64,000 nucleotides of DNA from Parcubacteria group bacterium M6-OD1-4 (GTDB taxonomy: Bacteria; Patescibacteriota; Patescibacteriia; Patescibacteriales; UBA12465): contig LSNS01000004.1 of the NCBI GenBank assembly GCA_003056205.1, positions 55,870 through 119,869 of the forward strand. The letters run 5' to 3'. The position numbers were made by a program, and so were the translations under genes. The notes beneath the pieces are model-generated. The model was not told where the DNA came from. It searched no databases and saw only the letters and a program-made list of their open reading frames with translations. This document shows, one piece after another, positions 29,882-44,864 of this stretch; the stretch's first letter is position 1; each line of letters begins with the position of its first letter.

Positions 29882-29964
29882 GCCGCGATGGCGGAACTGG
29901 TAGACGCGCACGACTCAAAATCGTGTTGGGGTAACCTAGTGAGGGTTCGATTCCCTCTCGCGGC
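29882..29964 (+). tRNA. tRNA-Leu (anticodon CAA), type II with a long variable arm
   Basis: gccgcga acceptor, gcggaactggtaga D-arm, anticodon stem cacga/tcgtg with loop ctCAAaa, T-arm gagggttcgattccctc, and 3' tcgcggc-a. Confidence 0.85.
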
Positions 29965-30057
29965 ACAATAATAAAAGTCGGCATTTGCCGACTTTTTAAA
30001 TAGTATTTAAATAAATTTTATTAGATTTTTTTGTTAAGTAGTTTAAAAAAAATTCAT

Positions 30058-30588
30058 TTATTTTTTCTGAGGATAAATTCGGTATTCCAGAAAATGTAGT
30101 TGTTTCCCGCTCATATTTATTTCATCGTATTCTCGTGCTACTTGAGCACCAAAAAACTCTGGGATTCTTCTACTAGCTTGATTATGAATATCTACTGGAT
30201 AAAAAAGATAATCATAATTTAGATTATGATCTGCCCATTTTTTAAGAGCAATGATGGCTTCTTTTCCATATCCATGACCATGAGCGGATTTCTTAATCCA
30301 GATTCCTAATTCTGGTGTTTTCCGATCTAGGTGATGAATACCGCCACAACCTAAAAAATCCTTGCTTTTTCTATGAAGTATAACAATTTGGAAATTACAA
30401 CCCTCCTCATTTTCTTTAATGGAGGTGGAAATAAATTTCTCCGTTTCTTTAATTTCCCGCGCTGGTCGAGGATACATATAAATAGCAATTTCTGGTGTTA
30501 ATTCTTTGAAAATATCATCTTTATATTTAAAAGTAATACCTTCTAAGTAAAGATTTTTTGTTTTGATGGTAATTTTTGATGTATTCAT
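30058..30588 (-). CDS. GNAT family N-acetyltransferase
   Basis: 176 aa. Acetyl-CoA-binding-like segment LGIWIKKSAHGHGYGKEAI. Confidence 0.55.
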   Translation of the reverse strand: MNTSKITIKTKNLYLEGITFKYKDDIFKELTPEIAIYMYPRPAREIKETEKFISTSIKENEEGCNFQIVILHRKSKDFLGCGGIHHLDRKTPELGIWIKKSAHGHGYGKEAIIALKKWADHNLNYDYLFYPVDIHNQASRRIPEFFGAQVAREYDEINMSGKQLHFLEYRIYPQKK

Positions 30589-30664
30589 GGAAAAAATAAA
30601 TTATGAGTAAAAAAAGAGATACGACGACAAATAGAACTGCATACATATTAATAGACGCTATTGC

Positions 30665-30972
30665 CAAACCATTAAAATTTCTTTCGGATGCAGATTAAAA
30701 ACCTTTTTCAATGTCGAATACTTTTGAGGATTTTCAATTCCCCATTTTGCTACATATACAGGAGAAATGACTTTAACCGTAAGTTTAGTCTCCTCAAGTA
30801 CCTCGCACTTAAGCCCAAACTCAGGCTGATCATCCTAATCAAGTCTTCCGCCAGGCAACATCCATAGTTCCTTGGTAAATTCTTTGTTTAAAGGTAGTTT
30901 TAAAATCAAAAATTCTTCTCGTGAATTCATGAGAACTCCATATTCTCCGACATTACATTTTAATCTTTTCAT
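30665..30972 (-). pseudogene. NUDIX hydrolase remnant with an in-frame stop and a degenerate Nudix box
   Basis: Minus-strand translation MKRLKCNVGEYGVLMNSREEF...LPGGRLD*DDQPEFGLKCEVLEETKL... The Nudix box is recognisable but mutated. An intact paralog lies at 42281..42712. Confidence 0.4.
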
Positions 30973-31140
30973 ATGTGTTAGTTTTTAATTTATTTCCAAT
31001 AACATCAAAATTTAATGAAGTTTTTCTAGAACGAAGAGAAAGAAAGATTTTGGTGAAAGAAAAAGTGTAACCTTTGAAAATTATTAACACACTTTTTATT
31101 GAATCTCATACATTCTATTATATAATGTAAAAAATATTTT

Positions 31141-31830
31141 TTAGGCTGTTTTATCGTCAATAAATAGTTTCGGAAAATCTGTGCCAATAGCATCCACGCC
31201 CATTGAAATTAATTTGTTGCCTAATTCTTTATTATTAACTCGATAAGCATAAACGGATTTTCTTAAACTATGGGCTTTGTTAATGAATTCTCGAGTAACA
31301 AGCTCGGAAAATGGGGCGAGAAAATCCAAAGGGACAGTGTTAGCCAAATCCCATATTTTTAGCATTACTTTATCTACACGAAAAAGAAGACCAACTTTTA
31401 AATCTGGGTTAATCTTTTTAATTTCTTTAAGTAGATAATCTTTAAATGAAGTAATGACGACTTGATTTTGAATATCATTTTTTAAAATAAGTTCATTCAC
31501 GGGCTCAGGTGTTTCATCTGCTTTTAATTCTATTTGTAAATCAATTTTATTTTTACAAACATCAATAACCTCCTGAAGCGTAGAGATTTTTTCACCTTGC
31601 TCACAATCTAATTTTTTCAGTTCAAGCAAAGTCATCTCATTGACAAAGCCCTTGCCACCGGTTAACTTGGAAACCTCCTCATCATGAAAAACAACCACTC
31701 GTCTGTCTTTGGTTAATCTAACATCTAGTTCAGCACGATCACAACCAATGGCAATTGCCATTCTAAATGAAGAGAGTGTATTTCCTGGTGCATAACCTGC
31801 TGCGCCTTTGTGTCCTACAATTTTTGTCAT
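31141..31830 (-). CDS. Glycerophosphodiester phosphodiesterase
   Basis: 229 aa. N-terminal HKGAAGYAPGNTLSSF and ELDVRLTKD...VVFHD motifs of the GDPD family. Confidence 0.8.
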   Translation of the reverse strand: MTKIVGHKGAAGYAPGNTLSSFRMAIAIGCDRAELDVRLTKDRRVVVFHDEEVSKLTGGKGFVNEMTLLELKKLDCEQGEKISTLQEVIDVCKNKIDLQIELKADETPEPVNELILKNDIQNQVVITSFKDYLLKEIKKINPDLKVGLLFRVDKVMLKIWDLANTVPLDFLAPFSELVTREFINKAHSLRKSVYAYRVNNKELGNKLISMGVDAIGTDFPKLFIDDKTA

Positions 31831-31966
31831 AAAAAATTCAAAAAATATTTTTTATTCCACTTAACCTTTAAGTATCATGCGATGTTTTTCTTTCTCTTCA
31901 CTATTATATTACAAATAAGAGAGAAAAAGAAATTTGGGAGATAAAATTTGATTAATAAGTAATTTT

Positions 31967-32635
31967 TTATTCATTAGAAATTTTTTCAGCCATTTTCATA
32001 ATAAAATCTTCAATAAACTCTTTGTCTATTTTTTCACCTACTTTGGATTCCTTTATTTCTTTAAAAAAATTTTCAATTCCTCTATCTTTCAATGCTTGAA
32101 ATTCCAACTTATCTTGTTCCTCCTGGTTGTCTGTTTTAGGAACCGAGTTTATTGCCCTATTAATATCTATTGATGTATGCAGAAAGTTATATAAATTCTC
32201 AAACGAAGAAAATTCTTTTAGTTTCCCTTGCTGTTTATATTTCTGAAATTTTGTTTCCATTTCTCCCAAAACTTCAGGAAAATATTTTTTCACTCGCTCA
32301 AGTCCTCTCTGATAAGCATCTTTTTCTTTAACCTCTATATATCGACTCCATTCCTTGTCTTGATCTATTTTGTTGATTTTTGTATTAAATTCTTCTTGTC
32401 GCAAATGTCCGAGTTCATGTAAAACCACTCCAAATGAAAGAAAAATATCTCCTTTGGGATATCGTATTTCAAAATCATTTGTCCCTTTGATTATACGTCC
32501 AGTGCCTTGCATTTCAACAGGCCATCCTAAAGACTTTTTTCCTTCGCTAAGAGAATCTGGTAATTCAGAGAGTGAAAAGATATTCCCCTTTTTCAAAGAA
32601 TATTTAGGCTGAAAGAATTTTTCTTCATTATTCAT
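31967..32635 (-). CDS. Putative HExxH zinc metallopeptidase (ImmA/IrrE-like or WLM-like)
   Basis: 222 aa. Single HELGHLRQEE motif (HExxH followed by a downstream Glu). Confidence 0.4.
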   Translation of the reverse strand: MNNEEKFFQPKYSLKKGNIFSLSELPDSLSEGKKSLGWPVEMQGTGRIIKGTNDFEIRYPKGDIFLSFGVVLHELGHLRQEEFNTKINKIDQDKEWSRYIEVKEKDAYQRGLERVKKYFPEVLGEMETKFQKYKQQGKLKEFSSFENLYNFLHTSIDINRAINSVPKTDNQEEQDKLEFQALKDRGIENFFKEIKESKVGEKIDKEFIEDFIMKMAEKISNE

Positions 32636-32725
32636 AAAATTAGTTATTGAGTAAATTTCTGAACCACATATGTTATGTTAGGTGATGTAGCAAAAGCCGA
32701 CTCCTTAATTTAAAATTTTGGCAAT

Positions 32726-33124
32726 CTATTTGTTTTCAATGCGATCTATTAATTTTTCAAGATCGTTTTTGTCACCAATCTTACCGCTCATGTGCGTAAG
32801 TAATGTATTTAAGCCAAATAAGCCTTCGCCATTAAGTCGTTCTTGTGCATCAGTAGCAAAATGCTGAATTTCATACTCAATCTTCTGTCTAAATTGAGGA
32901 TCAACATTTTCAAGAGCACTTTCTAATTGACCCGGAAGGGCGACAAGAAGTTGAGCTCTTTCTTGCAGTTTTTGTTTATATTCTCCCGTATCTTTTTTTG
33001 CGAGAGCCATGCCAGCCCCATGATCTAAAGAGCGAAACTTCTCCACCGTTTCTTTTAAAATTTGAACGACGGGTCGTAGGACATCTTTGTCCTCCTGTGG
33101 ATAATTTTGTTCTGGTGATTCCAT
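32726..33124 (-). CDS. Hypothetical helical protein
   Basis: 132-aa ORF. No motif recognised. Confidence 0.3.
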   Translation of the reverse strand: MESPEQNYPQEDKDVLRPVVQILKETVEKFRSLDHGAGMALAKKDTGEYKQKLQERAQLLVALPGQLESALENVDPQFRQKIEYEIQHFATDAQERLNGEGLFGLNTLLTHMSGKIGDKNDLEKLIDRIENK

Positions 33125-33226
33125 ATAATTATAATTTAGTTAATAATAAGTTGCCAAGATTCTTTAAAAATGTAAAGATGTTTTTGCTATTCCACATAAC
33201 AAAGTATATGATGTTGTTTGCGGACA

Positions 33227-33565
33227 TTACCCTTCTTTCGTCCTATTTAACACTCCATTTACTTTTTTGTACTCTCGGTTTTTATTTTTTTCAACTTTTT
33301 TCAAAATTTCATCCTCTAGGTTGATATTCAAAATTGCGGACAATCCCATTAAATATATTGCGACATCTGCTAGTTCTTCACCCAAATCTGGTAGTTTCTT
33401 TCTATATGCATGAAAAGCTTCGGAAAGTTCTTCGTGTATTAGACTAAATTCCAAACCGACATCAGTAGTATTAAAACCCTTAGCAATTTTATTCTTGAAT
33501 ATTTCTTTTTGTAATTTTTGTAAATCGATCATAGTCGAAAAAAAATTATTAGATAAATATAGCAA
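33227..33565 (-). CDS. MazG-like nucleotide pyrophosphohydrolase domain protein
   Basis: 112 aa. EExxE/ExxD metal-binding helices (IHEELSEAF...GEELADVAIYL). Confidence 0.55.
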   Translation of the reverse strand: MLYLSNNFFSTMIDLQKLQKEIFKNKIAKGFNTTDVGLEFSLIHEELSEAFHAYRKKLPDLGEELADVAIYLMGLSAILNINLEDEILKKVEKNKNREYKKVNGVLNRTKEG

Positions 33566-33614
33566 ACCATTTCATATAACGTGCGCGGATAATCCGAAGT
33601 TGCGAACGGTTGTT

Positions 33615-33817
33615 TTATTTTTTCGCACCTCGATATATCAAATAAGCACCGCCGAACAATGCGATTAATGTCCAAGTATTGTAGCCTACTAATTCAGTAG
33701 TACTCCAATCAGCAATGTATTTAAAATTTCCGCCACCTAAGGTGCCAATTATTAATAATGCCCCGAGTACAAAAAAATAGTTTTCTTGGCGGTGCTGGGC
33801 TTTTTTTGTTCATCCAT
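33615..33817 (-). pseudogene. DUF378-like small membrane protein, frameshifted at a T7 (plus-strand A7) homopolymer
   Basis: ATG frame reads MDEQKKPSTAKKTIF and then stops. The +1 frame continues FVLGALLIIGTLGGGNFKYIADWSTTELVGYNTWTLIALFGGAYLIYRGAKK, which resembles DUF378. Confidence 0.35.
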
Positions 33818-34226
33818 ATGTTTTTTATAGATTAGTGAGCAATTTGGGTGGAGGCTTTCGGAAGAGCCGTAACCGGATACTCGTTGTTAGCTGATGTATA
33901 TGTTTTTCTTTGATTTGCGAATGCAAATCACTCTTAAAAAGAATTTAATTTTGTTTTTTCTTTTTGGATTTTTGAAAGAGGGAAATTAAAGGGGTGAATT
34001 TCTAAAATCCAAAACTCATTATTATTTTTTATCATCTACTATTATATTTTGGTAGTATATTCTTTGATTATCAATAAATACTTTATTTTTTGTCCAGTCG
34101 GATTTACTATGTTCTGAAGAAGAAGTTTTTACTGATGGTAAATTATTGGCAGCGCTATTTTGACTATAAAAATTTGATAAGTGGTTACTATTAATAGTTG
34201 TCATATAAAATTTAAGAATAGTTTAA

Positions 34227-35222
34227 TTAAATTTGGTGTTGCCATCCCTCGAATGTTCTATTGTCCTGTATAGGTATTTGTTGGTTAACCGGTTGCTGTG
34301 GTAATTTTGTTAGAGTTCCTTCGCTAATATATATGTCTGAACCACCGTCAATAGAATCAAGTATCCCTCTGTGAAATGAATAATTAATTGTTTGATTAGT
34401 ACTTAAAAGTGTAGCGGGTTGATATGGTATTCTTAATTCTAATTCATTTTCAATATCATCATAAATAGCTTTGATTATATTATATAATTGTTGATTGGGT
34501 TTTTCCATATTTAAACCTAATCCTTCTTTTACTTCTTTTCTGTTTATTGTGTAGTCATGACTACCAGAATCTGAGCATAAAAATTTTATTATTTCCTTCA
34601 CATTTTTTCCATCAATATTTTGGTTCTTTAAAAGTTTATCTGCGAGCATTTGAATTTGTGCTTTTGATCTATAAACTTCTCCAAGTGATAGAGGGTGAAT
34701 TTTTTCGCTTAATTTTAAATAAACTTCTTTCAAGTCGCTGCTCTTTTTAATTTTAAAATCATTTTTTGCCATCTCAAGATAACCATTAACATGCTCGACG
34801 CTCACTGGTACTTTTATTTGTTGATTATTAATTACCACGACTGGATTAAGAAGTCCGTTTGTACTTGGATCAATTGGCCCCAGTGTTGCTTGTTTTGTCA
34901 TTATTATTTTATTTGCACCTAAACAAATTAAAGTTCCAGCACTATGACAATTAAACGGAACTATAATTTCAAGCTCTTTACAGAAATTTCTTAGCAAATT
35001 AATAAAACTCCACGCTGCTAAAGTGCTTCCACCTCTTGTATAGATAAAAAGAGTTATTTTTTCTACATCACCTATTGCGTCAAGGTGATTTGTGAGTGGT
35101 GAAATAATATCTGGTGCTATTCGAGTTTCAAGACCACCCCTGTCACTAGTACAAAATACTATTAATTTTGAATTACGCAACGATTCTATTTGTCGGTAAT
35201 TACTCATTCTATCTTCTCTCAT
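34227..35222 (-). CDS. ClpP/crotonase-fold serine peptidase (S49/SDH-like)
   Basis: 331 aa. N-terminal ClpP-like segment ...LFIYTRGGSTLAAWSFINLL...CHSAGTLICLGAN... plus an extra C-terminal domain of about 150 aa. Confidence 0.5.
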   Translation of the reverse strand: MREDRMSNYRQIESLRNSKLIVFCTSDRGGLETRIAPDIISPLTNHLDAIGDVEKITLFIYTRGGSTLAAWSFINLLRNFCKELEIIVPFNCHSAGTLICLGANKIIMTKQATLGPIDPSTNGLLNPVVVINNQQIKVPVSVEHVNGYLEMAKNDFKIKKSSDLKEVYLKLSEKIHPLSLGEVYRSKAQIQMLADKLLKNQNIDGKNVKEIIKFLCSDSGSHDYTINRKEVKEGLGLNMEKPNQQLYNIIKAIYDDIENELELRIPYQPATLLSTNQTINYSFHRGILDSIDGGSDIYISEGTLTKLPQQPVNQQIPIQDNRTFEGWQHQI

Positions 35223-35430
35223 ATTTTTAATTTATAAATTAGTTTTTGTAATGATAGTGGAAAAATTCGTTATTTCCCCTCATTAAATAAATAAAAAACA
35301 AAATTAAATTCTTTTTAAAAGTAAGGGCGAAACCTTAAAAGAAAAACATATATTTCAGCTAACGTTTAGGAATATCTGAAGTTCGCCGAAGTGAAACGAA
35401 GGCGAATTTGGATAACGTTTTAGTATATGA

Positions 35431-35454
35431 GAAGTTTCGCCGACTTCCTTTTTT
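35431..35454 (+). terminator. Plus-strand intrinsic-terminator-like hairpin (gaagt-ttcgccg-acttc plus T6)
   Basis: 5-bp stem, 7-nt loop, then cttttttaatt. It is unusual because no annotated plus-strand gene lies upstream. Confidence 0.35.
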
Positions 35455-35580
35455 AATTATATCATAAAAGGAGGCGAAATTTGGGTGAAAGAAATTTGCA
35501 CTCCTTACTAAAATTTAAAATGCAAATTTCTAGAACCTCATATACTTTGTTATCGGATGTAATTTAGCCACGCCGTGAAT

Positions 35581-36168
35581 TTACTTCTGACGTCTTTCAT
35601 GTCTAATTTTTTCAAAAACCTCTCCTTCCCCTAATGGATCAAGAGCAGTGTGGTGTAGCATTGCCTTTTCCTCATGTTTGGTTTTTTCTGAAATATGATA
35701 TTGTACTGGTTCAAGTAGCAGTGGCACAAGAGTATCAAGTTTATATTTTGCCAGATAAGCATGGGCAATAATTTCAATACGACGCAAATGATTTGGTTCG
35801 CTAATTAAAACTAAACGCAACTGCTCAGTATTTTTAAGATTTTTGAAAAAATTTTGTTGTTTCAATAAAGAAAAAGAAAATTTTATATTCTCTACAGTCT
35901 CTACCGACTTAGTTTCGGATAAAATGTCGTTTCTAGGTACACCTTTCGCTATTAAATAATCCTTCATTAAATTAGCAATTGAAATTTGTTGTCCTTTTTG
36001 AAATATGCCACCAGTACAAATAATTTTATTAATAAAACTTTGTCTGTATAAAATAAGTGCTTTATCAGCTCTAGCCCGTGTATCCCAAGCTATAACATCC
36101 TTGTTCTTTTGTTTTCGAACTCCGCACGAAAAACAGATTCCAATTGATATAAAATTTTCTTTTTCCAT
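35581..36168 (-). CDS. DUF218/YdcF-family protein
   Basis: 195 aa. ...KIICTGGIFQKG... and ...SETKSVETVENIKFS... match the DUF218 core motifs. Confidence 0.5.
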   Translation of the reverse strand: MEKENFISIGICFSCGVRKQKNKDVIAWDTRARADKALILYRQSFINKIICTGGIFQKGQQISIANLMKDYLIAKGVPRNDILSETKSVETVENIKFSFSLLKQQNFFKNLKNTEQLRLVLISEPNHLRRIEIIAHAYLAKYKLDTLVPLLLEPVQYHISEKTKHEEKAMLHHTALDPLGEGEVFEKIRHERRQK

Positions 36169-36447
36169 ATGTTTTTAGATTAGTGGCTAAATTATTTCCG
36201 ATAACGCGCGCGGATAATCCAAGGTTTCTTGAAACAAATCCCGAAGGGTTTGTGGAAAGAAATTTTTGGATATCCGTTGTTATACGAAGTTCCGCGGAGC
36301 GGAATGAAGTATAACGGCGGAGGTATGCGCGCGCGTTATTCAAAATGGAGTGAAGCGGAATTTTGAATAACTAGTTATTATCCAAACTCTATGCCTATAT
36401 TGTAACAATATCTTGTATGTCATGCAAACTTTTGATACAATATTGAT

Positions 36448-37260
36448 ATGGATAAAATTTTAGAAAAAACTGATCGCTTGTTGCGACTTCGCAATTATAG
36501 TCCAAAAACTCGCAAAGCATATTTGCTTTACATTAAAAATTATATCACATTTTCCAAAACACTTGGTATAAAAAACAAGCAAAAAGCGATTGAAAATTTT
36601 TTGCTTGATAAACACAGACGAAAGCAATCTCCACAGACGATTAACTTGGCACTCAACTCTGTAAAATTCTTATATACAGAAGTATTAGGGGATTCGCAGA
36701 AAATTGACTTAAAATTTGCAAAAAGAAGTAAGAAGTTGCCAATAGTATTATCACGAGCAGAAATTAACAAAATCATTGAGACAACCGATAACTCAAAGTA
36801 TAAGCTCATGATTTCGCTTGGTTATGCTTGTGGTATGAGAGTTAGCGAAGTGGTAAAACTTAAGGTATCAGATTTAGATATTGATGAGCTTGTTGTACAT
36901 ATTAAGGGAGCAAAAGGAAAGAAAGATAGAATTAGCGTGTTACCAGAAAAATTGCAAAACGATTTACGAAATGCTATTGCGGGTAAAAATGTAAACGATT
37001 TTATCTTTACTTCCAATCGTGGTGGCAGTCTCACGACAACATCACTCCAAAAAATGTTTCGGAAAAGTTTGGCAAAAGCAAACGTGAGCAAACCTGCAAC
37101 TTTTCACTCTTTGCGACACTCCTTTGCCACTCACTTATTAGAAAACGGAACAGATGTACGCTATGTGCAGGAATTACTTGGGCACGCCAACATCCGTACC
37201 ACGCAAATATACACTCAAGTTACAAATCCAAAATTAAAGAATATTAAAAGTCCATTGTAA
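36448..37260 (+). CDS. Tyrosine site-specific recombinase/integrase (XerC/D-like)
   Basis: 270 aa. N-terminal SAM-like core-binding domain. Catalytic motifs include R in GMRVSE, HSLRHSFATHLL (HxxR) and GHANIRTTQIYTQV (nucleophile Tyr). Confidence 0.85.
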   Translation: MDKILEKTDRLLRLRNYSPKTRKAYLLYIKNYITFSKTLGIKNKQKAIENFLLDKHRRKQSPQTINLALNSVKFLYTEVLGDSQKIDLKFAKRSKKLPIVLSRAEINKIIETTDNSKYKLMISLGYACGMRVSEVVKLKVSDLDIDELVVHIKGAKGKKDRISVLPEKLQNDLRNAIAGKNVNDFIFTSNRGGSLTTTSLQKMFRKSLAKANVSKPATFHSLRHSFATHLLENGTDVRYVQELLGHANIRTTQIYTQVTNPKLKNIKSPL

Positions 37261-37274
37261 TTGTTATAGCAAAC

Positions 37275-37358
37275 CCACAAAAATCAAAATTGCCTTTGCG
37301 TTTTTATCCTTTTTCCAATTTTTTTCGAAAAAGGAAAAGGCAGATTTTGTTTTTGTGG
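37275..37358. repeat. Long imperfect inverted repeat (ccacaaaaatcaaaattgcctttgc ... gaaaaggcagattttgtttttgtgg), immediately 3' of the integrase gene
   Basis: Arms are about 25 nt each with a 9/9 match at the ends, and the loop is about 35 nt. Could be a terminator or a recombination/arm site. Confidence 0.45.
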
Positions 37359-37454
37359 CTCGCCGTAGTGAAGCGGAGGCGGGTAACGCGAATAATATTG
37401 TTCACGCCTTGAGGCGAAAAAAAACCTGCTAAAGGCGGACGAATTCTATTCTAG

Positions 37455-37538
37455 TGCCCGGAAGAGGACTTGAACCTCCAAGGAATTTCTTCCACAGCGT
37501 TCTGAACACTGCGTGTTTACCAATTTCACCATCCGGGC
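37455..37538 (-). tRNA. tRNA-Leu (anticodon CAG), type II
   Basis: Reverse complement gcccggatggtgaaattggtaaacacgcagtgttcagaacgctgtggaagaaattccttggaggttcaagtcctcttccgggca. Acceptor gcccgga/tccgggc, anticodon loop ttCAGaa, long variable arm. Confidence 0.85.
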
Positions 37539-39525: not shown

Positions 39526-39865
39526 AATATTTCTAAACTTAATAAATTTTGATAAATTTTCAATATTCTTTTGGAATAACCAATGATGACGTTATAATTT
39601 TACTATTTTCAAGGACTTTTAGCAAATTAGAGATAATAAAATTAAAAAGAACTACTAATAACATATTTATAGGATATTATCCGATAAAAAATAGCTAGAA
39701 GCAATTTAAAGAAAAATAACAATGCTTATAACAAGAAGAGAATAAAAAAAATAAATACTAAGAAATTAATCAAAAAAGCATCTCTAGAAATTTTAGAAAT
39801 GCTTAATTGTTCCATTCTTAACTCCCGCCCATGATGATCTCAGTAATAACTATCATCACTTAACA

Positions 39866-40456
39866 TTATCGAGAATGAGTTTTTAGTTTAATTTGACAAC
39901 TCCCAGGATCCTGTATTTTTTTCGCAACTAAAAAAATAGAAATTAAGAGAAGAATAATACTCAGCAAACCAAACTCTTGTCCTTGAAGAGGCAGGACGCC
40001 AATAAAACCAGCGGTCGCTCCAATCCCAAATAAAGATGAGAGTATTACCGAACCACAGGAAGCACAGCCCACACTAACCAAGCCACTAATAACTCCCAAA
40101 ACACTTAAACCCGCCGAGCGTTGGAGTTTAATTCTTTTTTTCAGATAATAGACTAAGAAAGCAATATTAATACCAAAAAGTAGGGCGACAATAATAGTTA
40201 GAGTTCTAGAGAGAGTAGTAAAATTAGTTTCCAAAGCCCCTAAAGAGCTCAGCAATAATAAAAACTTTTGCTGACTAGTATAGAGTTTAGAAATAATAGT
40301 TTGCGTTACAAATGACCAATTCGGTAACCAAATAGCAAATAATAAAACTGTCCCCGAAACAACTACAGCAGTCACTTGGTACCAAAAACGACTAAAAACC
40401 TCTTGAAATGATTTTAGCAGAAGTGTGAGAGAATTAAATTTTCTTTCTTTAGTCAT
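39866..40456 (-). CDS. Polytopic membrane protein with intramembrane CxxC (GCASCG) plus a C-terminal Cys. Putative redox partner of the adjacent DsbA-like protein.
   Basis: 196 aa, 4-5 TM. Conserved with the paralog at 46869..47420 (LFG..A..VYYL, GCAxCG, LPLxGQEFG, DPxxC). Forms a 2-gene module with a thioredoxin-fold protein. Confidence 0.45.
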   Translation of the reverse strand: MTKERKFNSLTLLLKSFQEVFSRFWYQVTAVVVSGTVLLFAIWLPNWSFVTQTIISKLYTSQQKFLLLLSSLGALETNFTTLSRTLTIIVALLFGINIAFLVYYLKKRIKLQRSAGLSVLGVISGLVSVGCASCGSVILSSLFGIGATAGFIGVLPLQGQEFGLLSIILLLISIFLVAKKIQDPGSCQIKLKTHSR

Positions 40457-40462
40457 GAAATT

Positions 40463-41215
40463 TTATTTTTTAGATTTTACTGACCTTAACTCAGCATCAA
40501 TCATCTGAGTAAAGACGCTAGTTGGTTGAGCCCCATAGATACTTTGAGTGCCAATAACAAATCCCGGAGTACCATTGATATTGAATTTTGCGCCCTCAGT
40601 CTTGTCAGCATTTTCTTCTTGAATGTATTGAGCGCGATTCTTGGTCATTAATTGGGAAACTTTATTAGCATCAATTCCTGGGATAGATCCGGCTAATTTA
40701 AGGATATCAGCACGATTACCCCAACCCCTGTTTTCACCGTCCTGAGCACCATACATGGCCTGGTGCCATTGAAAATATTTAGTAGGATAAAGCTGCCAAA
40801 TCGCTTTCTCGGCAATACCAGCAGTTACGGAATCTGGACCTAAAAATTGAAAATCCTTAAAAATAATCTTCAATTTCCCTTCTTTAACATAACGATCTAC
40901 TAAAACTGGCAAGGTATTGGTTTCAAATCGCTTACAAAATGGACATTGAAAATCAAACCAATAGGCCAAGACAACGGGAGTATTAACTTTACCAATAAAG
41001 GGTTCACCTTTAATCTGGACATTTTTAATATTAATTGCTGAAACCGTCGGTCGCCGAGTTGGCACAGTTTGAGCGGGAATGTTATCGCCTGGACTAGTGA
41101 CCGAAGATGGCTTTGAATTATTCCGATTAGAATAAATCATTGCCCCCGCAATCAGAACTCCCACAGCGAGAATAGAAAGCGGGATAAGATAAGGATTGTG
41201 TTCTTGATGAGACAT
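40463..41215 (-). CDS. DsbA-like thiol:disulfide oxidoreductase (membrane-anchored thioredoxin fold)
   Basis: 250 aa. N-terminal TM and FDFQCPFCKRF CxxC active site. Confidence 0.7.
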   Translation of the reverse strand: MSHQEHNPYLIPLSILAVGVLIAGAMIYSNRNNSKPSSVTSPGDNIPAQTVPTRRPTVSAINIKNVQIKGEPFIGKVNTPVVLAYWFDFQCPFCKRFETNTLPVLVDRYVKEGKLKIIFKDFQFLGPDSVTAGIAEKAIWQLYPTKYFQWHQAMYGAQDGENRGWGNRADILKLAGSIPGIDANKVSQLMTKNRAQYIQEENADKTEGAKFNINGTPGFVIGTQSIYGAQPTSVFTQMIDAELRSVKSKK

Positions 41216-41304
41216 ATAATTATTTAATTAGTAAGAAAAATCTATTTTGATTACAAAAAAACACTTTTTTAACAACAAAAAAGTATTTAAAAAACTCTTT
41301 AAAT

Positions 41305-41751
41305 TTATTCGATTTTGACGATGCTTAAAATTTGAGAAGTTCGGGCTGCTAATAAATTGTCCGAAGAAAATAAGGGCCCTTGGCGTTGCTTATTTAAACT
41401 AAAATTGTTTGGCAAAATACCAAAAGCTAAATACAAAATAGATTTCTGTTGCCCCCGATTACCAGCTTCCCCGATATTAACCATTGATGACTCATTTTGG
41501 TTGATTATTGTTTTTCTTTTGGATTGACAATGTTGCTGAGAATACTGAACATCTTGATGTAATATTTGACTTTTCGAAACAAGTTTTTGTCCTGAAGGAG
41601 TTGCAGCCTGAACTACGGTAGGATGGCAAGAAAAAATACTTAAAGTCAAAAAAGCGAAGAGACTAAAGAGAAAAAGAGATTTTTTAGTTTTTGAAAATAG
41701 ATATTTGACTTTCATATTGCTCATTATAATATAATTTTCTTCCCAAGACAA
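41305..41751 (-). CDS. Hypothetical secreted protein
   Basis: 148-aa ORF with a signal-peptide-like N-terminus. Confidence 0.3.
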   Translation of the reverse strand: MSWEENYIIMSNMKVKYLFSKTKKSLFLFSLFAFLTLSIFSCHPTVVQAATPSGQKLVSKSQILHQDVQYSQQHCQSKRKTIINQNESSMVNIGEAGNRGQQKSILYLAFGILPNNFSLNKQRQGPLFSSDNLLAARTSQILSIVKIE

Positions 41752-42280
41752 GATGAAAATAAAAAAAAGTTTTTAGAGGAATAAGAATAATTCTCTCCTT
41801 TCCATAGACGATAGTAATCAATATCTACCATGTTGTAGATCTGGTCTTTTCAGATAATTTCTGGGTAAGTTTAATATGATTTTTTTTAATTAAATAAAGA
41901 CCATCAGAGGCAACTGTTAATTTACTAGCATCAATAAATAAATATTGTTTGTCCTTTGAATCTCCACTGAGATAAATATTAATCTCAGGTGATAAAGCAA
42001 TACAAACATAGTCTTGAGAACCAGTATACTTTTTTACTGTTTGAATATTAGAAGTAAAGTAAACAATATCTCCTTTTACAACATCAATTTCTTCAACTCC
42101 AGTGGGTATTCTAAAATAATTAAATATTTCTTTTGGACCATAATATAATATTTTTTTATCAGCTAGCGTTTCTGGTGTCGGAGCTCCACAATATTTTATA
42201 TGTTAAAAAATAAAAAGAAAAACTTTGCTGAAATGAGAAGTATAGAAAACGTAAATTTTCTTTAAGTTAAAATTAACTTG

Positions 42281-42712
42281 TTAAAATTTATAAAATAACT
42301 TTAGACAAGCATCCAAATCTTGAATAATGGGCAGATTTAAAGCATCTTTTGGAGACAGCCATTTAAAATCTTTATGTTCTTTGCGTCGCATAACCACTTT
42401 ATTTTTTTGAGCCAATTCTGTGTGGTAAATATGATAAACAAAATCATAATCCGGATATTTTACAAATACTTTTCCAAAATAGGAAAGCTGAGAAGAAGTT
42501 AATTTAAATCCAGTTTCTTCCCAAATTTCTCTTATCATGGTTTCCAGAATTTCTTCTCCAGCATCAACTTTACCAGCGGGTACTCCCCAGGTATTGCCTT
42601 GAGGTTTATAGTCCTGTCTATGAAGTAATAGAATTTTCCCATCATATTCCATAAAACAACTCACTACATTAAATTTTGGATTAAAATCTTGTGGTCTTTC
42701 TTTGTAAATCAT
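42281..42712 (-). CDS. NUDIX hydrolase
   Basis: 143 aa. Intact Nudix box GKVDAGEEILETMIREIWEETGF. Confidence 0.8.
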   Translation of the reverse strand: MIYKERPQDFNPKFNVVSCFMEYDGKILLLHRQDYKPQGNTWGVPAGKVDAGEEILETMIREIWEETGFKLTSSQLSYFGKVFVKYPDYDFVYHIYHTELAQKNKVVMRRKEHKDFKWLSPKDALNLPIIQDLDACLKLFYKF

Positions 42713-42928
42713 ATTTTATAAAAATAATTGGAATAGAAAAAATTATTTTAAGATTGAATTTTAATTCTAGATAACGTTAGGGACACGCGAAATTTTTTAT
42801 AGCATAATGAAAAAAAAGTTGAAAATGCGAATCGAGCAATTTTTTTCTATTCCCTGTTATATAAAGAGAAGAGTAACACAGTAAAATGAAGACCCAACAT
42901 CTACGAAGATTTAATTTATATCTCTTCG

Positions 42929-43411
42929 CTACAAATTACGATTTATAATCTGTTTTACAAAAGTATTAGTTTCAATTTTAGCAGAACTACCCGATAAAGT
43001 ATACAAGATTTCACAATTAAAGCCTAAATCAAAGCCTTCAAATGCTGAAGCAAGAATACAAGCATCCAAATCTAATCCACAGAAAAATAATTTTGAAATT
43101 TTGTTTTGGCTTAAAAAGGCAACGAATTCTTTTGATTTAAATATTGAATAAGTATGTTTTTCAAAAATATGATTTTTTAAAGCGATGTTAGAAAGTTCAG
43201 AAACAATATCAACTTCAGGAGCAATCTGGCATTTACGCCAATTCAGTTTTTTAATAAAATTTGAGTTTTCTGTGTTTATGAATTTTGAGAATATAATAAA
43301 ATTATATTTTTGTAACTCAATATGTTCTTTAATTTTTTGAGGAAGAGATTTGGTTTTATCTGTAATAAAACAATTTTGTAAATCTAATATAATAAGGGCC
43401 GTTCTATCCAT
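42929..43411 (-). CDS. Isochorismatase/cysteine hydrolase family protein
   Basis: 160 aa. N-terminal ALIILDLQNCF and a catalytic Cys region GLDLDACI. Confidence 0.55.
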   Translation of the reverse strand: MDRTALIILDLQNCFITDKTKSLPQKIKEHIELQKYNFIIFSKFINTENSNFIKKLNWRKCQIAPEVDIVSELSNIALKNHIFEKHTYSIFKSKEFVAFLSQNKISKLFFCGLDLDACILASAFEGFDLGFNCEILYTLSGSSAKIETNTFVKQIINRNL

Positions 43412-43591
43412 AATATTAATTAATTTAGATTGATATATAAACCATTTATTTTAAGACGGGTAAAAGCAATATCATATCAGGAAAATCTTATCTAGGTTGT
43501 TTTGACTAAACCACAAAACTTCATACTGGAACCAACAACGATTTTTTTATTCATAATTAAATTTATCATTGTTACGTGGTGTAGTAAAAAT

Positions 43592-44257
43592 TTAAAAATC
43601 TGATATCTCCTGCCAATATTTATAAAATAGCTTATTTAGTTTGCTTATTCTAAGCCCAATACTTTGTTTGTCTATCTCGGGGAAATTACCAAAATAATAA
43701 TTCCATATCTCCTTTTTCGTTGGCTTATTTAACAAAAACTTAACGTGATCCCAATGAAAATTTTGTAAAAATATTAAAATCTTTGGCGTTTCTTTTTTTT
43801 GGTAATTGTCTAATATCCATTGAATGTTTTTAGCCATAATTTTCTCGCGCAAATATATCTTAACCCACCAAAGCCAATTTTTCTCAGCGCAGGGGTACAT
43901 ATGGCTCCACACTTCCAACCATTCTCTGGTTAACTCATTTGGAGCATCCACAGTATAGACGAAAATCTGATGATTTTTTTCCCAAAGATTGACAATATTT
44001 TTCCACATTATTGTGTCTGCTTTAACCCAGGGATGAATCTTAAGAACTTCTTTAGAGAATTCCTTAAGTCGTCCTCTAACTAGTTTTTTCGGTTTTTTCA
44101 AAGCAGAATAATTGTTAAATTGTGAATCAGGTGTTTTATTGTTGTTTGGATATTCAAGAATAATAATGTCTGGTTTATATTTAATAACAGCATTAGCCTG
44201 GCGTAAATCCAGCTCGTTAGATTCTTTGCAATCAAATTGGAAATAAATTGGTTTCAT
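43592..44257 (-). CDS. Hypothetical Trp-rich protein
   Basis: 221-aa ORF with no recognised motif. Shares a conserved upstream element with hisS. Confidence 0.35.
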   Translation of the reverse strand: MKPIYFQFDCKESNELDLRQANAVIKYKPDIIILEYPNNNKTPDSQFNNYSALKKPKKLVRGRLKEFSKEVLKIHPWVKADTIMWKNIVNLWEKNHQIFVYTVDAPNELTREWLEVWSHMYPCAEKNWLWWVKIYLREKIMAKNIQWILDNYQKKETPKILIFLQNFHWDHVKFLLNKPTKKEIWNYYFGNFPEIDKQSIGLRISKLNKLFYKYWQEISDF

Positions 44258-44864
44258 AAAGAAATCTTTAAATTTTTACCATTGCCCGTATTTCTTCAGG
44301 ATATGCAATGTTTCGTTGGCTTTTTTAAAATAGTCAATCTTTGTTCTATAATTTTACTATTTTCAAAGACCTTTAGCAAATTTATAATCAATTCGGAATA
44401 TTAAACAACAAATCATTATTTATCTAATAATTCAGTAGAGCCTCTCAATAAAGGGGCAATAATAAAAAAGAGGATTCGTTACAAATCCCCTGAAGCTTTA
44501 TTTCGATAATATAGATATAATTTGAAACGCAATCGTTCCAATAATGATGCTGAGAAAAAAAATCCCCAACAAGCATAAATATCTATTAAACATTTTATTA
44601 ACGAACTTTGACATCATTACACCCTCCTTTTTTATTGTTAATATACAACTAAATTCGCTTATATAATACTTATTTAATTAATCTCTGTCAAATTTAATAA
44701 AATAAATTTGAATTCTTCTTCAGCTTAAATTCCACTAGTAACAAAAAGTACCGCATTGTACTTCGCCCTGGTAAAAACGCTTCATTTTTTCTTTAAGAAA
44801 ACTTTAAATTTTATTAAGGAGTAATAATTTATAATAAGTTTATTAATAAATTAAATATCAATTT

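Follow-up and report, generated by a model that had tools for sequence, protein, structure and literature searches.

A small-gene array beside an IntI-like recombinase in a Patescibacteria contig: probable variable part of a chromosomal integron-like platform

The recombinase locus between two tRNA-Leu genes

The segment examined here occupies positions 29965 to 37538 of a 64,000-nucleotide (nt) stretch of contig LSNS01000004.1 (the window) from Parcubacteria group bacterium M6-OD1-4, assembly GCA_003056205.1, and carries a run of small genes next to a tyrosine recombinase gene. An initial annotation had described two convergent tRNA-Leu genes at its ends, which was borne out by ARAGORN: tRNA-Leu(CAA) was placed at 29882-29966 (+) and tRNA-Leu(CAG) at 37454-37538 (-). 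All open reading frames (ORFs) of note between the two tRNA genes were on the minus strand except the recombinase, which faced away from this one-directional run. Comparison with other loci suggested that the segment probably constitutes the variable array of an integron-like platform for gene capture, of the sedentary chromosomal kind and typical of Patescibacteria (the candidate phyla radiation, or CPR).

Most of the genes listed in that annotation were recovered with Pfam and NCBIfam (GNAT, GDPD, DUF218, ClpP-fold protease and recombinase). The NUDIX pseudogene was also upheld, with an in-frame TAG in the frame at 30658-30972 (-) and 27.6 bits against Pfam NUDIX. The MazG-like call (33227-33565) rested on a weak match of 22 bits, under the Pfam cut-off, and the proposed HExxH peptidase (31967-32635, 222 amino acids [aa]) had an HELGH motif but no Pfam family match. 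Pieces of a small membrane protein were present in two frames where a frameshifted DUF378 gene had been proposed, but the 53-aa fragment had no Pfam match and the assignment was dropped. The recombinase end and the boundaries of the segment comprised the following features.

37454-37538 (-): tRNA-Leu(CAG), by ARAGORN; tRNA-Val(CAC) lies directly next to it in relatives
37275-37358 (no strand): long hairpin right after the recombinase stop (inverted repeat I2), kept in a subset of platforms
36448-37260 (+): IntI-like tyrosine recombinase without I2, 270 aa (PF00589 and PF13495)
36413-36441 (+): candidate promoter Pint, facing the recombinase, TTGTAT-17-TACAAT; read by eye, consensus match only
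36428 to 36399 (-): candidate promoter Pc, facing the array, TTTGCA-18-TACAAT with TG; consensus match only
36372-36447 (+): attI-like junction and promoter region, from the upstream alignment of about 80 loci and from loci L120 and L121
29882-29966 (+): tRNA-Leu(CAA), by ARAGORN; far end of the variable segment

The recombinase was a simple two-domain enzyme (PF13495 and PF00589) with intact catalytic residues (R131, H220-x-x-R223, H246 and Y255 in a motif check), and no arm-binding domain was found in it among Pfam, NCBIfam and PDB matches. The top NCBIfam model was the integron integrase TIGR02249, with 223 bits in two stretches (cut-off, 265), followed closely by XerA_Arch with 208.6 bits (cut-off, 220), while XerD and XerC scored 183 and 180.8 bits versus cut-offs of 329.6 and 335; a grouping with IntI rather than with Xer is tentative. 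The closest solved homologue was VchIntIA of Vibrio cholerae (2A3V; E = 2.7e-45), and matches to XerA, XerD and XerH were all weaker. The VchIntIA alignment paired query residues 10 to 204 with chain residues 11 to 210 and query residues 195 to 270 with chain residues 242 to 317. This left a gap of about 30 residues at the I2 region, and hence the enzyme appeared IntI-like in sequence and Xer-like in architecture. An AlphaFold2 model from a 30-sequence alignment had a mean predicted local distance difference test (pLDDT) score of 62.8, with the catalytic domain below 50, and was not used; the usable homologues were all >81% identical, so that the alignment was poor in information.

Homologues were very numerous, and proteins 81 to 90% identical to the recombinase were found in metagenome-assembled genomes (MAGs) labelled Spechtbacterales, Kerfeldbacteria, Vogelbacteria and Moraniibacteriota; a scan of viral contigs for the recombinase detected no close relative. 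A few nt past the recombinase stop, many lineages had the start of a housekeeping gene (lepA, trmD, miaB or fmt), which indicated that the recombinase is a stable chromosomal gene. The non-coding sequence upstream of the recombinase was also conserved across CPR orders. In the closest genomes, which were Patescibacteria and mostly labelled Falkowbacteria, RNase HII was at most 77% identical to that of the window, and this value applied to the nearest GTDB species. The high conservation of the recombinase and its upstream region suggested that the platform has either spread horizontally or come under unusually strong constraint. Hairpins related to the one that follows the recombinase stop (…AAAACCATTTCCTT…AAGGAAATGGTTTT…) were observed in L089-L092, L095, L098, L104 and L113, and the hairpin at 37275-37358 may act as a terminator or form another element of the platform.

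Structured sites, single-ORF arrays and cassette differences

A k-mer count over 35 regions upstream of recombinase genes pointed to AAATTTGGG, which occurred in 18 of the 35 and in 1 downstream region, with no reverse complement upstream. Extraction of its context gave a common element of about 110 nt that separates the array genes. On the recombinase strand, corresponding to the 'bottom' strand for the cassettes, the element read YATAAC-G-TTT-(L'')-GAAGTT-(hairpin a)-AATTTGGGTG-(hairpin b)-GAACC-(L')-T-GTTRNNCG. The R'' arm ended in …ATTTCNNNYAAC and was followed by G, a TTT bulge and an L'' of about 10 nt; the centre consisted of GAAGTT, hairpin a, AATTT, GGGTG, hairpin b and GAACC; and the R' arm started with GTTRNNCGATGT…. 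The R arms were long (12 to 24 nt) and contained a conserved ATTTC/GATGT. Analysis of 20 aligned seeds with RNAalifold produced a stem with a three-way junction and compensatory changes at 15 of 28 pairs.

A covariance model (CM R1) was built from these 20 seed sites. With filters off, five matches with E values below 0.01 were detected in the window, all on the plus strand, and 87 were detected in 82 recombinase-centred metagenome loci (0.6 Mb). All 87 were upstream of the recombinase, though only 212 kb of upstream sequence was searched versus 321 kb downstream, and 86 were on the recombinase strand, with up to seven sites per locus. There were no matches in 80 rnhB-centred control loci (1.24 Mb, about 30 of the loci being from Patescibacteria-type genomes). 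Pairing across the 87 matches was found in 91.7% of cells versus 72.8% in shuffled and 32 to 43% in slid controls, while double-change cells numbered 433 versus 147 in shuffles, a level reached by 0 of 500 shuffles. A conserved G·T pair was present in 80 of 81 sequences. Model-free folding of nine sites as single-stranded DNA gave the same fold as the consensus, and the plus strand folded better than the minus strand in all nine, by 0.4 to 4.7 kcal/mol; for the site at 35406-35563 the minimum free energy was -26.2 kcal/mol (z = -5.6), with the same three-way junction predicted. The stems of the site were therefore supported by covariation and framed by an invariant AAC/GTT. When the region and five arrays were scanned with Rfam, tRNAs alone were returned, with no family for the site.

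The GC-rich repeat family reported by the initial annotation proved to be this attC-like structured site: ATAACGYGCGCGGATAATCC was present at 33576 and 36201 versus an expectation of 0, and the repeat is not random. From the recombinase outward, the array of the window was composed as follows.

36335-36371 (+): ORF-less hairpin mini-cassette, GTTATTCAAAAT…ATTTTGAATAAC, with loop GGAGTGAAGCGGA
36279-36315 (+): second ORF-less hairpin mini-cassette, GTTATACGAAGTTCCGC…GCGGAATGAAGTATAAC; found in L112 too
36195-36293 (+): attC-like site (CM R1, 29.2 bits, E = 2e-5); copy 2 of the GC-rich repeat
35549-36205 (-): DUF218 cassette with ORF 35581-36168 (inverted repeat I9, Pfam), bounded by GTTATCGGATGTAATTTAGCCAC and GTGGCTAAATTATTTCCGATAAC
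35406-35563 (+): best-preserved attC-like site, complete (CM R1, 64.5 bits, E = 5e-15)
35357-35409 (+): left-half site with R'' CAGCTAAC, L'', GAAGTT and hairpin a only, read from the sequence
33886-35363 (-): protease cassette (inverted repeats I1 and I4, Pfam SDH_protease)
33749-33900 (+): degenerate site (CM, 20.4 bits), with a well-preserved right half at 33841-33885
About 33600-33830 (no strand given): DUF378-like remnant, from the array map
33573-33625 (+): left-half site, copy 1 of the GC-rich repeat, CATATAAC-GTGCGCGGATAATCC-GAAGTT…
33227-33565 (-): MazG-like cassette gene (Pfam, weak)
33193-33215 (no strand given): reduced site, from the array map
32689-33208 (-): hyp132 segment, 520 nt, with a 132-aa hypothetical gene at 32726-33124

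The site at 35406-35563 had the complete layout R''-L''-hairpin a-AATTTGGGTG-hairpin b-GAACC-L'-R'. The protease cassette contained an SDH-type ClpP-fold protease ORF (34227-35222, 331 aa) and a 60-aa ORF (34022-34204) between terminal inverted repeats of about 78 nt (GTTAGCTGATG…/…CAGCTAAC). These repeats (33886-33963 and 35289-35363) were 92 to 94% complementary, far beyond the usual R arms. The right half at 33841-33885 was about 90% identical to the site at positions 48 to 162 of L120. Hairpin units of 37 nt without an ORF (GTTA…TAAC), with loops of the GGAGYGAAGCG type, also adjoined attI in L112, L119, L101 and L122; the same loop motif recurred in hairpin a of many sites and at 37366-37376. 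Good sites were confined to the recombinase-proximal part of the window array.

Alignment of the upstream sequences of about 80 loci demonstrated that variable DNA ended in …YAAC and was followed by conserved TSGTTTTTATNNRAAC…ATTGTAACAATATCTTGTATGTTATGCAAAC…ATG. From this shared junction (…YAAC-TSGTTTTTAT…) it was about 75 nt to the recombinase start, and the switch in the window fell between 36371 (…AAC) and 36372, where conserved platform DNA opened with TAGTTATTATCCAAAC…. The candidate Pint ended 6 nt ahead of the recombinase ATG. A dif-like 11-6-11 palindrome picked out by eye in the attI region was rejected, as its arms were too weakly symmetric. Contigs ended 41 to 238 nt upstream of the recombinase start in 19 of 80 metagenome contigs and within 250 nt past the stop in 5, and contigs of the same species began at 36272-36378; breaks upstream of the recombinase fit population heterogeneity at the junction.

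The layout of a recombinase plus array recurred in dozens of CPR lineages with differing chromosomal contexts. In Kerfeldbacteria L081 and Vogelbacteria L085, the recombinase was likewise divergent from a minus-strand run of small genes, but the genes differed (a DpnI-like gene, HicA plus partner, MazG and unknowns). An inverted repeat GTTR…/…YAAC surrounded each small gene in these two loci, as it did the DUF218 and protease cassettes of the window. Array segments were counted between consecutive sites or from the last site to the platform, giving 83 segments in 37 loci. The longest ORF was on the array strand in 74 of these and on the other strand in 3, with none in 6; the medians were 622 nt for spacing, 169 aa for ORF length and 0.82 for coding fraction. 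The cassette proteins (n = 64) were essentially unrelated to each other and matched 53 Pfam families, of which NUDIX (n = 4) and SDR, isochorismatase, methyltransferase and MazG (n = 2 each) were the commonest. Unrelated ORFs shared site types, arms included: the window site at 35406-35563 was about 85% identical to an L150 site up to GTTATCGGATGTAATTT and unrelated beyond it, and the L150 ORF was unrelated. The two ends of a given cassette were complementary at 14.2 of 24 positions, versus 9.6 for ends facing each other over a site and 10.0 for randomly paired ends (Mann-Whitney test, p = 2e-9), as is expected of a circularising unit.

Differences between closely related loci were then located relative to the sites. 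L120 and L121, from different metagenomes, were 100% identical over 885 nt of attI and recombinase and unrelated to the left of …TAAC-TAG, where their first cassettes encode 220 aa and 132 aa, respectively. A second comparison (by blastn) was with L168 (GCA_003056195.1), which is from the same species as the window, has an identical recombinase and has flanks 99.6 to 99.9% identical to those of the window. L168 retained both ends of the segment and differed in internal cassettes alone. One block was absent from it, as given by blastn and the junction sequences.

33581-36205 (no strand): 2,625 nt absent from L168, both ends being …ATAAC followed by G; contains the DUF378-like remnant, the protease cassette and the DUF218 cassette

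At the L168 junction, the arm of the MazG cassette (…CATAAC) was joined to GCGCGCGGATAATCCAAGG…, which is the window sequence from 36206 onward. The hyp132 segment (520 nt) was also absent from L168. Excision from AAC to AAC was rejected for this segment because its breakpoints in TGATGT do not fit, and the indel may be a microhomology-mediated or secondary-site event. Copies of TGATGT are present at 32683-32688 and 33209-33214, and GATGT is conserved in many R' arms. The MazG cassette was 97.2% identical between the two assemblies (L168 7387-7776 and window 33209-33599), compared to 99.6 to 99.9% for the flanks, which hints at allelic cassette replacement. In a comparison of the window at 42.9-43.5 kb with the first cassette of L102, homology spanned the site, the ORF and the R'' arm and stopped at …AAC.

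Synteny between the window and rnhB-centred loci of GTDB genomes was conserved to the right of the segment. The ancestral order in relatives was tRNA-Val(CAC), tRNA-Leu(CAG), rnhB, hisS and a response regulator gene; nothing to the left of tRNA-Leu(CAG) in the window matched within 10 kb of the relatives, tRNA-Val(CAC) was absent from the whole window and no empty site was found among the rnhB-centred loci of relatives. In L010, L012 and L017, 1.2 to 2.7 kb was inserted between tRNA-Leu(CAG) and tRNA-Val(CAC), at the spot of the synteny break in the window and with neither a recombinase nor a site. GC content was 0.316 in the segment versus 0.325 in the window, and the base-composition profile of the window contained no island signal. 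The recombinase stop was 193 nt from tRNA-Leu(CAG), a distance previously put at 195 nt. Probes of 22 and 15 nt from the 3' end of this tRNA gene matched the tRNA itself only, and the end was unrepeated anywhere in the window with two to three mismatches allowed, in agreement with the earlier failure to find a second att copy.

Integron-like reading, rival explanations and known systems

By comparison of loci, the architecture, the conservation and covariation of the site, its exclusive placement and orientation, and the presence, absence and replacement of cassettes exactly at AAC were all demonstrated at the level of sequence. The best reading of these data is a platform with an I2-less integrase and attC-like sites with a three-way junction, widespread in CPR. 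Such a platform would consist of an IntI-related recombinase gene and about 75 nt of conserved upstream region, the latter providing an attI-like insertion junction and back-to-back promoter-like hexamers directed toward the recombinase and the array. Each cassette would normally comprise one small ORF on the opposite strand and then, reading away from the recombinase, an attC-like site. The recombinase would bind to the R and L boxes of the folded single strand and, as integron integrases do, may exchange one strand at or beside the AA-C step. Exchange with attI would result in insertion, and exchange with another attC-like site in excision or shuffling. Array genes would be transcribed from the candidate platform promoter.

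Several observations weigh against this interpretation. The recombinase scored below the cut-offs of both integron integrase and Xer models, and the unmatched residues of VchIntIA (about 30; chain residues ~211 to 241) are those of the IntI-specific I2 region, a region reported as a requirement for capturing cassettes and for recombining single strands (PMC7790495, PMC8138268). Pairs were counted in an alignment that had been fitted to the model, and the seeds were 20 of the 87 matches; the present data fit a folded-DNA and a folded-RNA site alike. Matches in the promoter scan were no commoner than in shuffled sequence. Most sites of the window were weak (20 to 37 bits) or half-sites. All comparison sequences were metagenome assemblies, and the 2.6-kb difference from L168 was flanked by a direct repeat of 20 to 23 nt, at which assembly collapse is possible. 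The hyp132 breakpoints fell in a 6-nt repeat located 6 to 12 nt inside the R' arms and not at AAC.

The serious rival is that the recombinase is an Xer-type dimer resolvase with an adjacent dif-like site and that the cassettes are small elements accumulating at that site, similar to integrative mobile elements exploiting Xer (IMEXs). We consider this unlikely; it is mechanistically close to the integron-like platform and differs mainly in the primary job of the enzyme, which would be housekeeping. Xer-like architecture (270 aa, neither I2 nor an arm-binding domain), strong matches to the XerA, XerC and XerD models, 81 to 90% identity across CPR orders and a housekeeping gene placed tightly 3' in many lineages would all suit a resolvase, and Smyshlyaev et al. 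(PMC8138268) regard the 'Cand' group of Xer-related recombinases, from candidate phyla, as possibly standing in for Xer. The scores were, however, under the XerC, XerD and XerA cut-offs, and the closest solved relative was IntI, not Xer. In nearly every 1-kb interval GC skew was below zero, to the left and right of the locus alike, and the cumulative curve was essentially monotonic over the 64 kb, with no turning point; the locus is hence not at the terminus. The parAB genes, which are usually near the origin, were just 7 kb away. Dimer resolution would also leave one-directional single-ORF cassettes with a common structured site unexplained. A further alternative, that the repeats are RNA elements or selfish repeats similar to repetitive extragenic palindromes (REPs) or miniature inverted-repeat transposable elements (MITEs) and unrelated to the recombinase, seems scarcely credible. 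An RNA could equally have the conserved G·U-type pairs and the three-way junction, and half-sites and ORF-less hairpins resemble decaying repeat elements, but the copies were upstream of the recombinase in 87 of 87 cases, in the same orientation in 86 and absent from controls, and stretches present in one genome and missing from another ended exactly at them. Read as RNA, the copies would run antisense to the genes of the cassettes, and no Rfam family matched.

The initial annotation had instead proposed a single integrative island that entered at tRNA-Leu(CAG) via a phage-type integrase and is decaying, with its distal att eroded. This is very improbable and was largely refuted, since its defining tests failed. 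The recombinase is indeed 193 nt from the tRNA 3' end; the ancestral tRNA-Val/tRNA-Leu(CAG) pair is broken exactly there, with the left side unmatched within 10 kb; a convergent tRNA gene was found within 400 nt in 7 of 49 platforms, several arrays ended at a tRNA gene, and a pseudogene and decayed distal sites were present. Against these stood the unrepeated tRNA end, the lack of a compositional difference, a recombinase of the Xer/IntI group rather than of the arm-binding integrases and the absence of a close relative from viral contigs. Variation within the species was by internal cassettes at structured sites, and the identity of the neighbouring tRNA varied among lineages. The part of the proposal that survived was that the segment is accessory, variable, linked to a recombinase and partly decayed (the pseudogene and the degenerate distal sites); a single element inserted in tRNA-Leu with a lost att was not sustained, as there was no att repeat and no arm-binding domain and strains varied cassette by cassette. 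Grouping of the recombinase with chromosomal XerC/D enzymes had been named as a finding that would speak against an island, as had a conserved gene order; the recombinase did fall in the Xer/IntI clade, while gene order differed even within the species.

The integron-like platform can be compared with several known systems. It is similar to sedentary chromosomal integrons (the V. cholerae superintegron with IntIA/IntI4 and V. cholerae repeat [VCR] attC sites) in having a divergent recombinase and a one-directional, mostly single-ORF array; a fixed junction by the recombinase gene with promoter-like elements; imperfect R''-L''…L'-R' palindromes with an invariant AAC…GTT; site families common to unrelated ORFs and ORF-less cassettes; and NUDIX, MazG, GNAT, isochorismatase and toxin-antitoxin cassettes. 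The enzymes are also alike, VchIntIA being the closest solved homologue, but that of CPR is without the I2 insertion. Canonical attC sites have a variable middle, whereas the CPR site has a conserved three-way junction (GAAGTT/AATTTGGGTG/GAACC) and a conserved G·T pair; this junction and the TTT bulge set it apart from canonical attC by description, and the long R arms (12 to 24 nt, with ATTTC/GATGT) are a further difference. The archaeal integrons (Ghaly et al. 2022, PMC9668308) are comparable in being arrays in MAGs of uncultivated small-genome lineages with folded sites, but their integrases possess the IntI-specific domain, and the canonical model describes their attC sites.

Single-recombinase Xer systems (XerS/difSL, XerH/difH and archaeal XerA) have in common with the CPR locus a simple Xer-like enzyme without extra domains and, for XerS/difSL, a recombination site adjoining the recombinase gene. 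The CPR locus differs in the absence of a terminus signature and in scores under the Xer cut-offs, and its arrays differ in having up to seven uniformly oriented sites with single-ORF cassettes. In CTX phage, an IMEX, a folded single strand is the substrate of Xer enzymes, which is a precedent for the proposed use of a folded strand. The pdif modules of Acinetobacter plasmids are similarly small gene modules bounded by sites of an Xer-type recombinase. However, pdif sites alternate in orientation around each module, whereas 86 of 87 CPR sites had one orientation, and pdif sites are 28-bp duplexes, compared to structured elements of about 110 nt in CPR.

A full-text literature search found no description of integrons or cassette arrays in CPR/Patescibacteria, which is not proof of absence, and none was found for this type of folded recombination site. 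Patescibacteria are not among the phyla listed as integron carriers (PMC9668308). Integron integrases are currently defined and detected via the IntI-specific domain, which the standard detection tool requires (PMC9668308) and which is said to be absent from all other proteins (PMC7790495). Such a tool would skip the CPR system, and an entire class of cassette platforms escapes surveys that require an I2 profile (PMC9668308).

On a broader proposal our judgement is evenly divided: CPR would carry a widespread natural integron that works without I2, in which a Xer-like recombinase captures single-ORF cassettes via folded sites and the three-way junction replaces recognition by I2 and extrahelical bases. 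This could be a surviving pre-I2 stage or an independent invention, and it would be a main route of gene flux in these ultra-small genomes. In integron research, the I2 helix is regarded as what allowed a Xer-like enzyme to capture cassettes and to recombine single strands (PMC7790495). If the proposal is true, a natural and abundant I2-less architecture would make the question of whether cassettes or I2 came first directly testable and would represent a second solution to structure-specific recombination; if the biochemistry holds, interest for the origin of integrons would be high. For CPR biology, the platform would offer a concrete mechanism for strain-level turnover of accessory genes in genomes seen as streamlined, and it may help explain the assembly breaks just upstream of the recombinase gene. 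The sites and the enzyme could also become tools for structure-specific recombination.

Distal genes, a second variable region and neighbouring tRNA genes

Beyond the hyp132 segment, the array continued toward tRNA-Leu(CAA) with the following features.

32650-32687 (flanks the HELGH gene): right-half site; weak CM match at 32591-32691, 12 bits
31967-32635 (-): HELGH-motif gene, no family match
31855-31941 (flanks the HELGH gene): left-half site, read from the sequence
31141-31830 (-): GDPD cassette gene (Pfam GDPD, E = 3.5e-36)
30993-31097 (+): decayed attC-like site 3' of GDPD, the most distal recognised (CM, 28.8 bits, E = 2.6e-5)
30658-30972 (-): NUDIX pseudogene (Pfam)
30058-30588 (-): GNAT acetyltransferase (Pfam), cassette status uncertain

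No recognised site was present beside the GNAT gene. The distal genes (GDPD, the HExxH-motif gene, the NUDIX pseudogene and GNAT), with their sites decayed or missing, look fixed and in decay.

A second variable region was observed at 39526-44864, where an extra 5.3 kb separated hisS from the response regulator gene. These two genes flank the region in the window and are adjacent in relatives, in which the region has no counterpart. All of its called genes were on the minus strand (a membrane protein, a DsbA-like protein, a 148-aa ORF, NUDIX, an isochorismatase-family protein and a 221-aa ORF), and an apparent gene remnant was present at 41.8-42.2 kb. It contained a site and the cassette gene compared above with L102.

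42765-42870 (+): attC-like site outside the segment, within 39526-44864 (CM, 37.3 bits, E = 1e-7)
42929-43411 (-): isochorismatase-family cassette gene, 75% protein identity to the first cassette of L102

The region looks like a recombinase-distal cassette cluster.

The idea of a link to tRNA genes retained a kernel, in that platforms adjoin tRNA genes more often than a rough expectation. A convergent tRNA gene was located within 400 nt of the recombinase stop in 7 of 49 platforms, the window counted, compared to fewer than one locus expected, roughly, from tRNA density. Loci with a tRNA gene by the recombinase were the window, L091/L092, L095, L113, L118 and L144, and the tRNAs adjacent to platforms were Leu-CAG, Leu-GAG, Arg-CCT, Ser-GGA, Val-TAC and Ala-CGC. 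In L081, L153 and L159, the far end of the array was beside a plus-strand tRNA gene.

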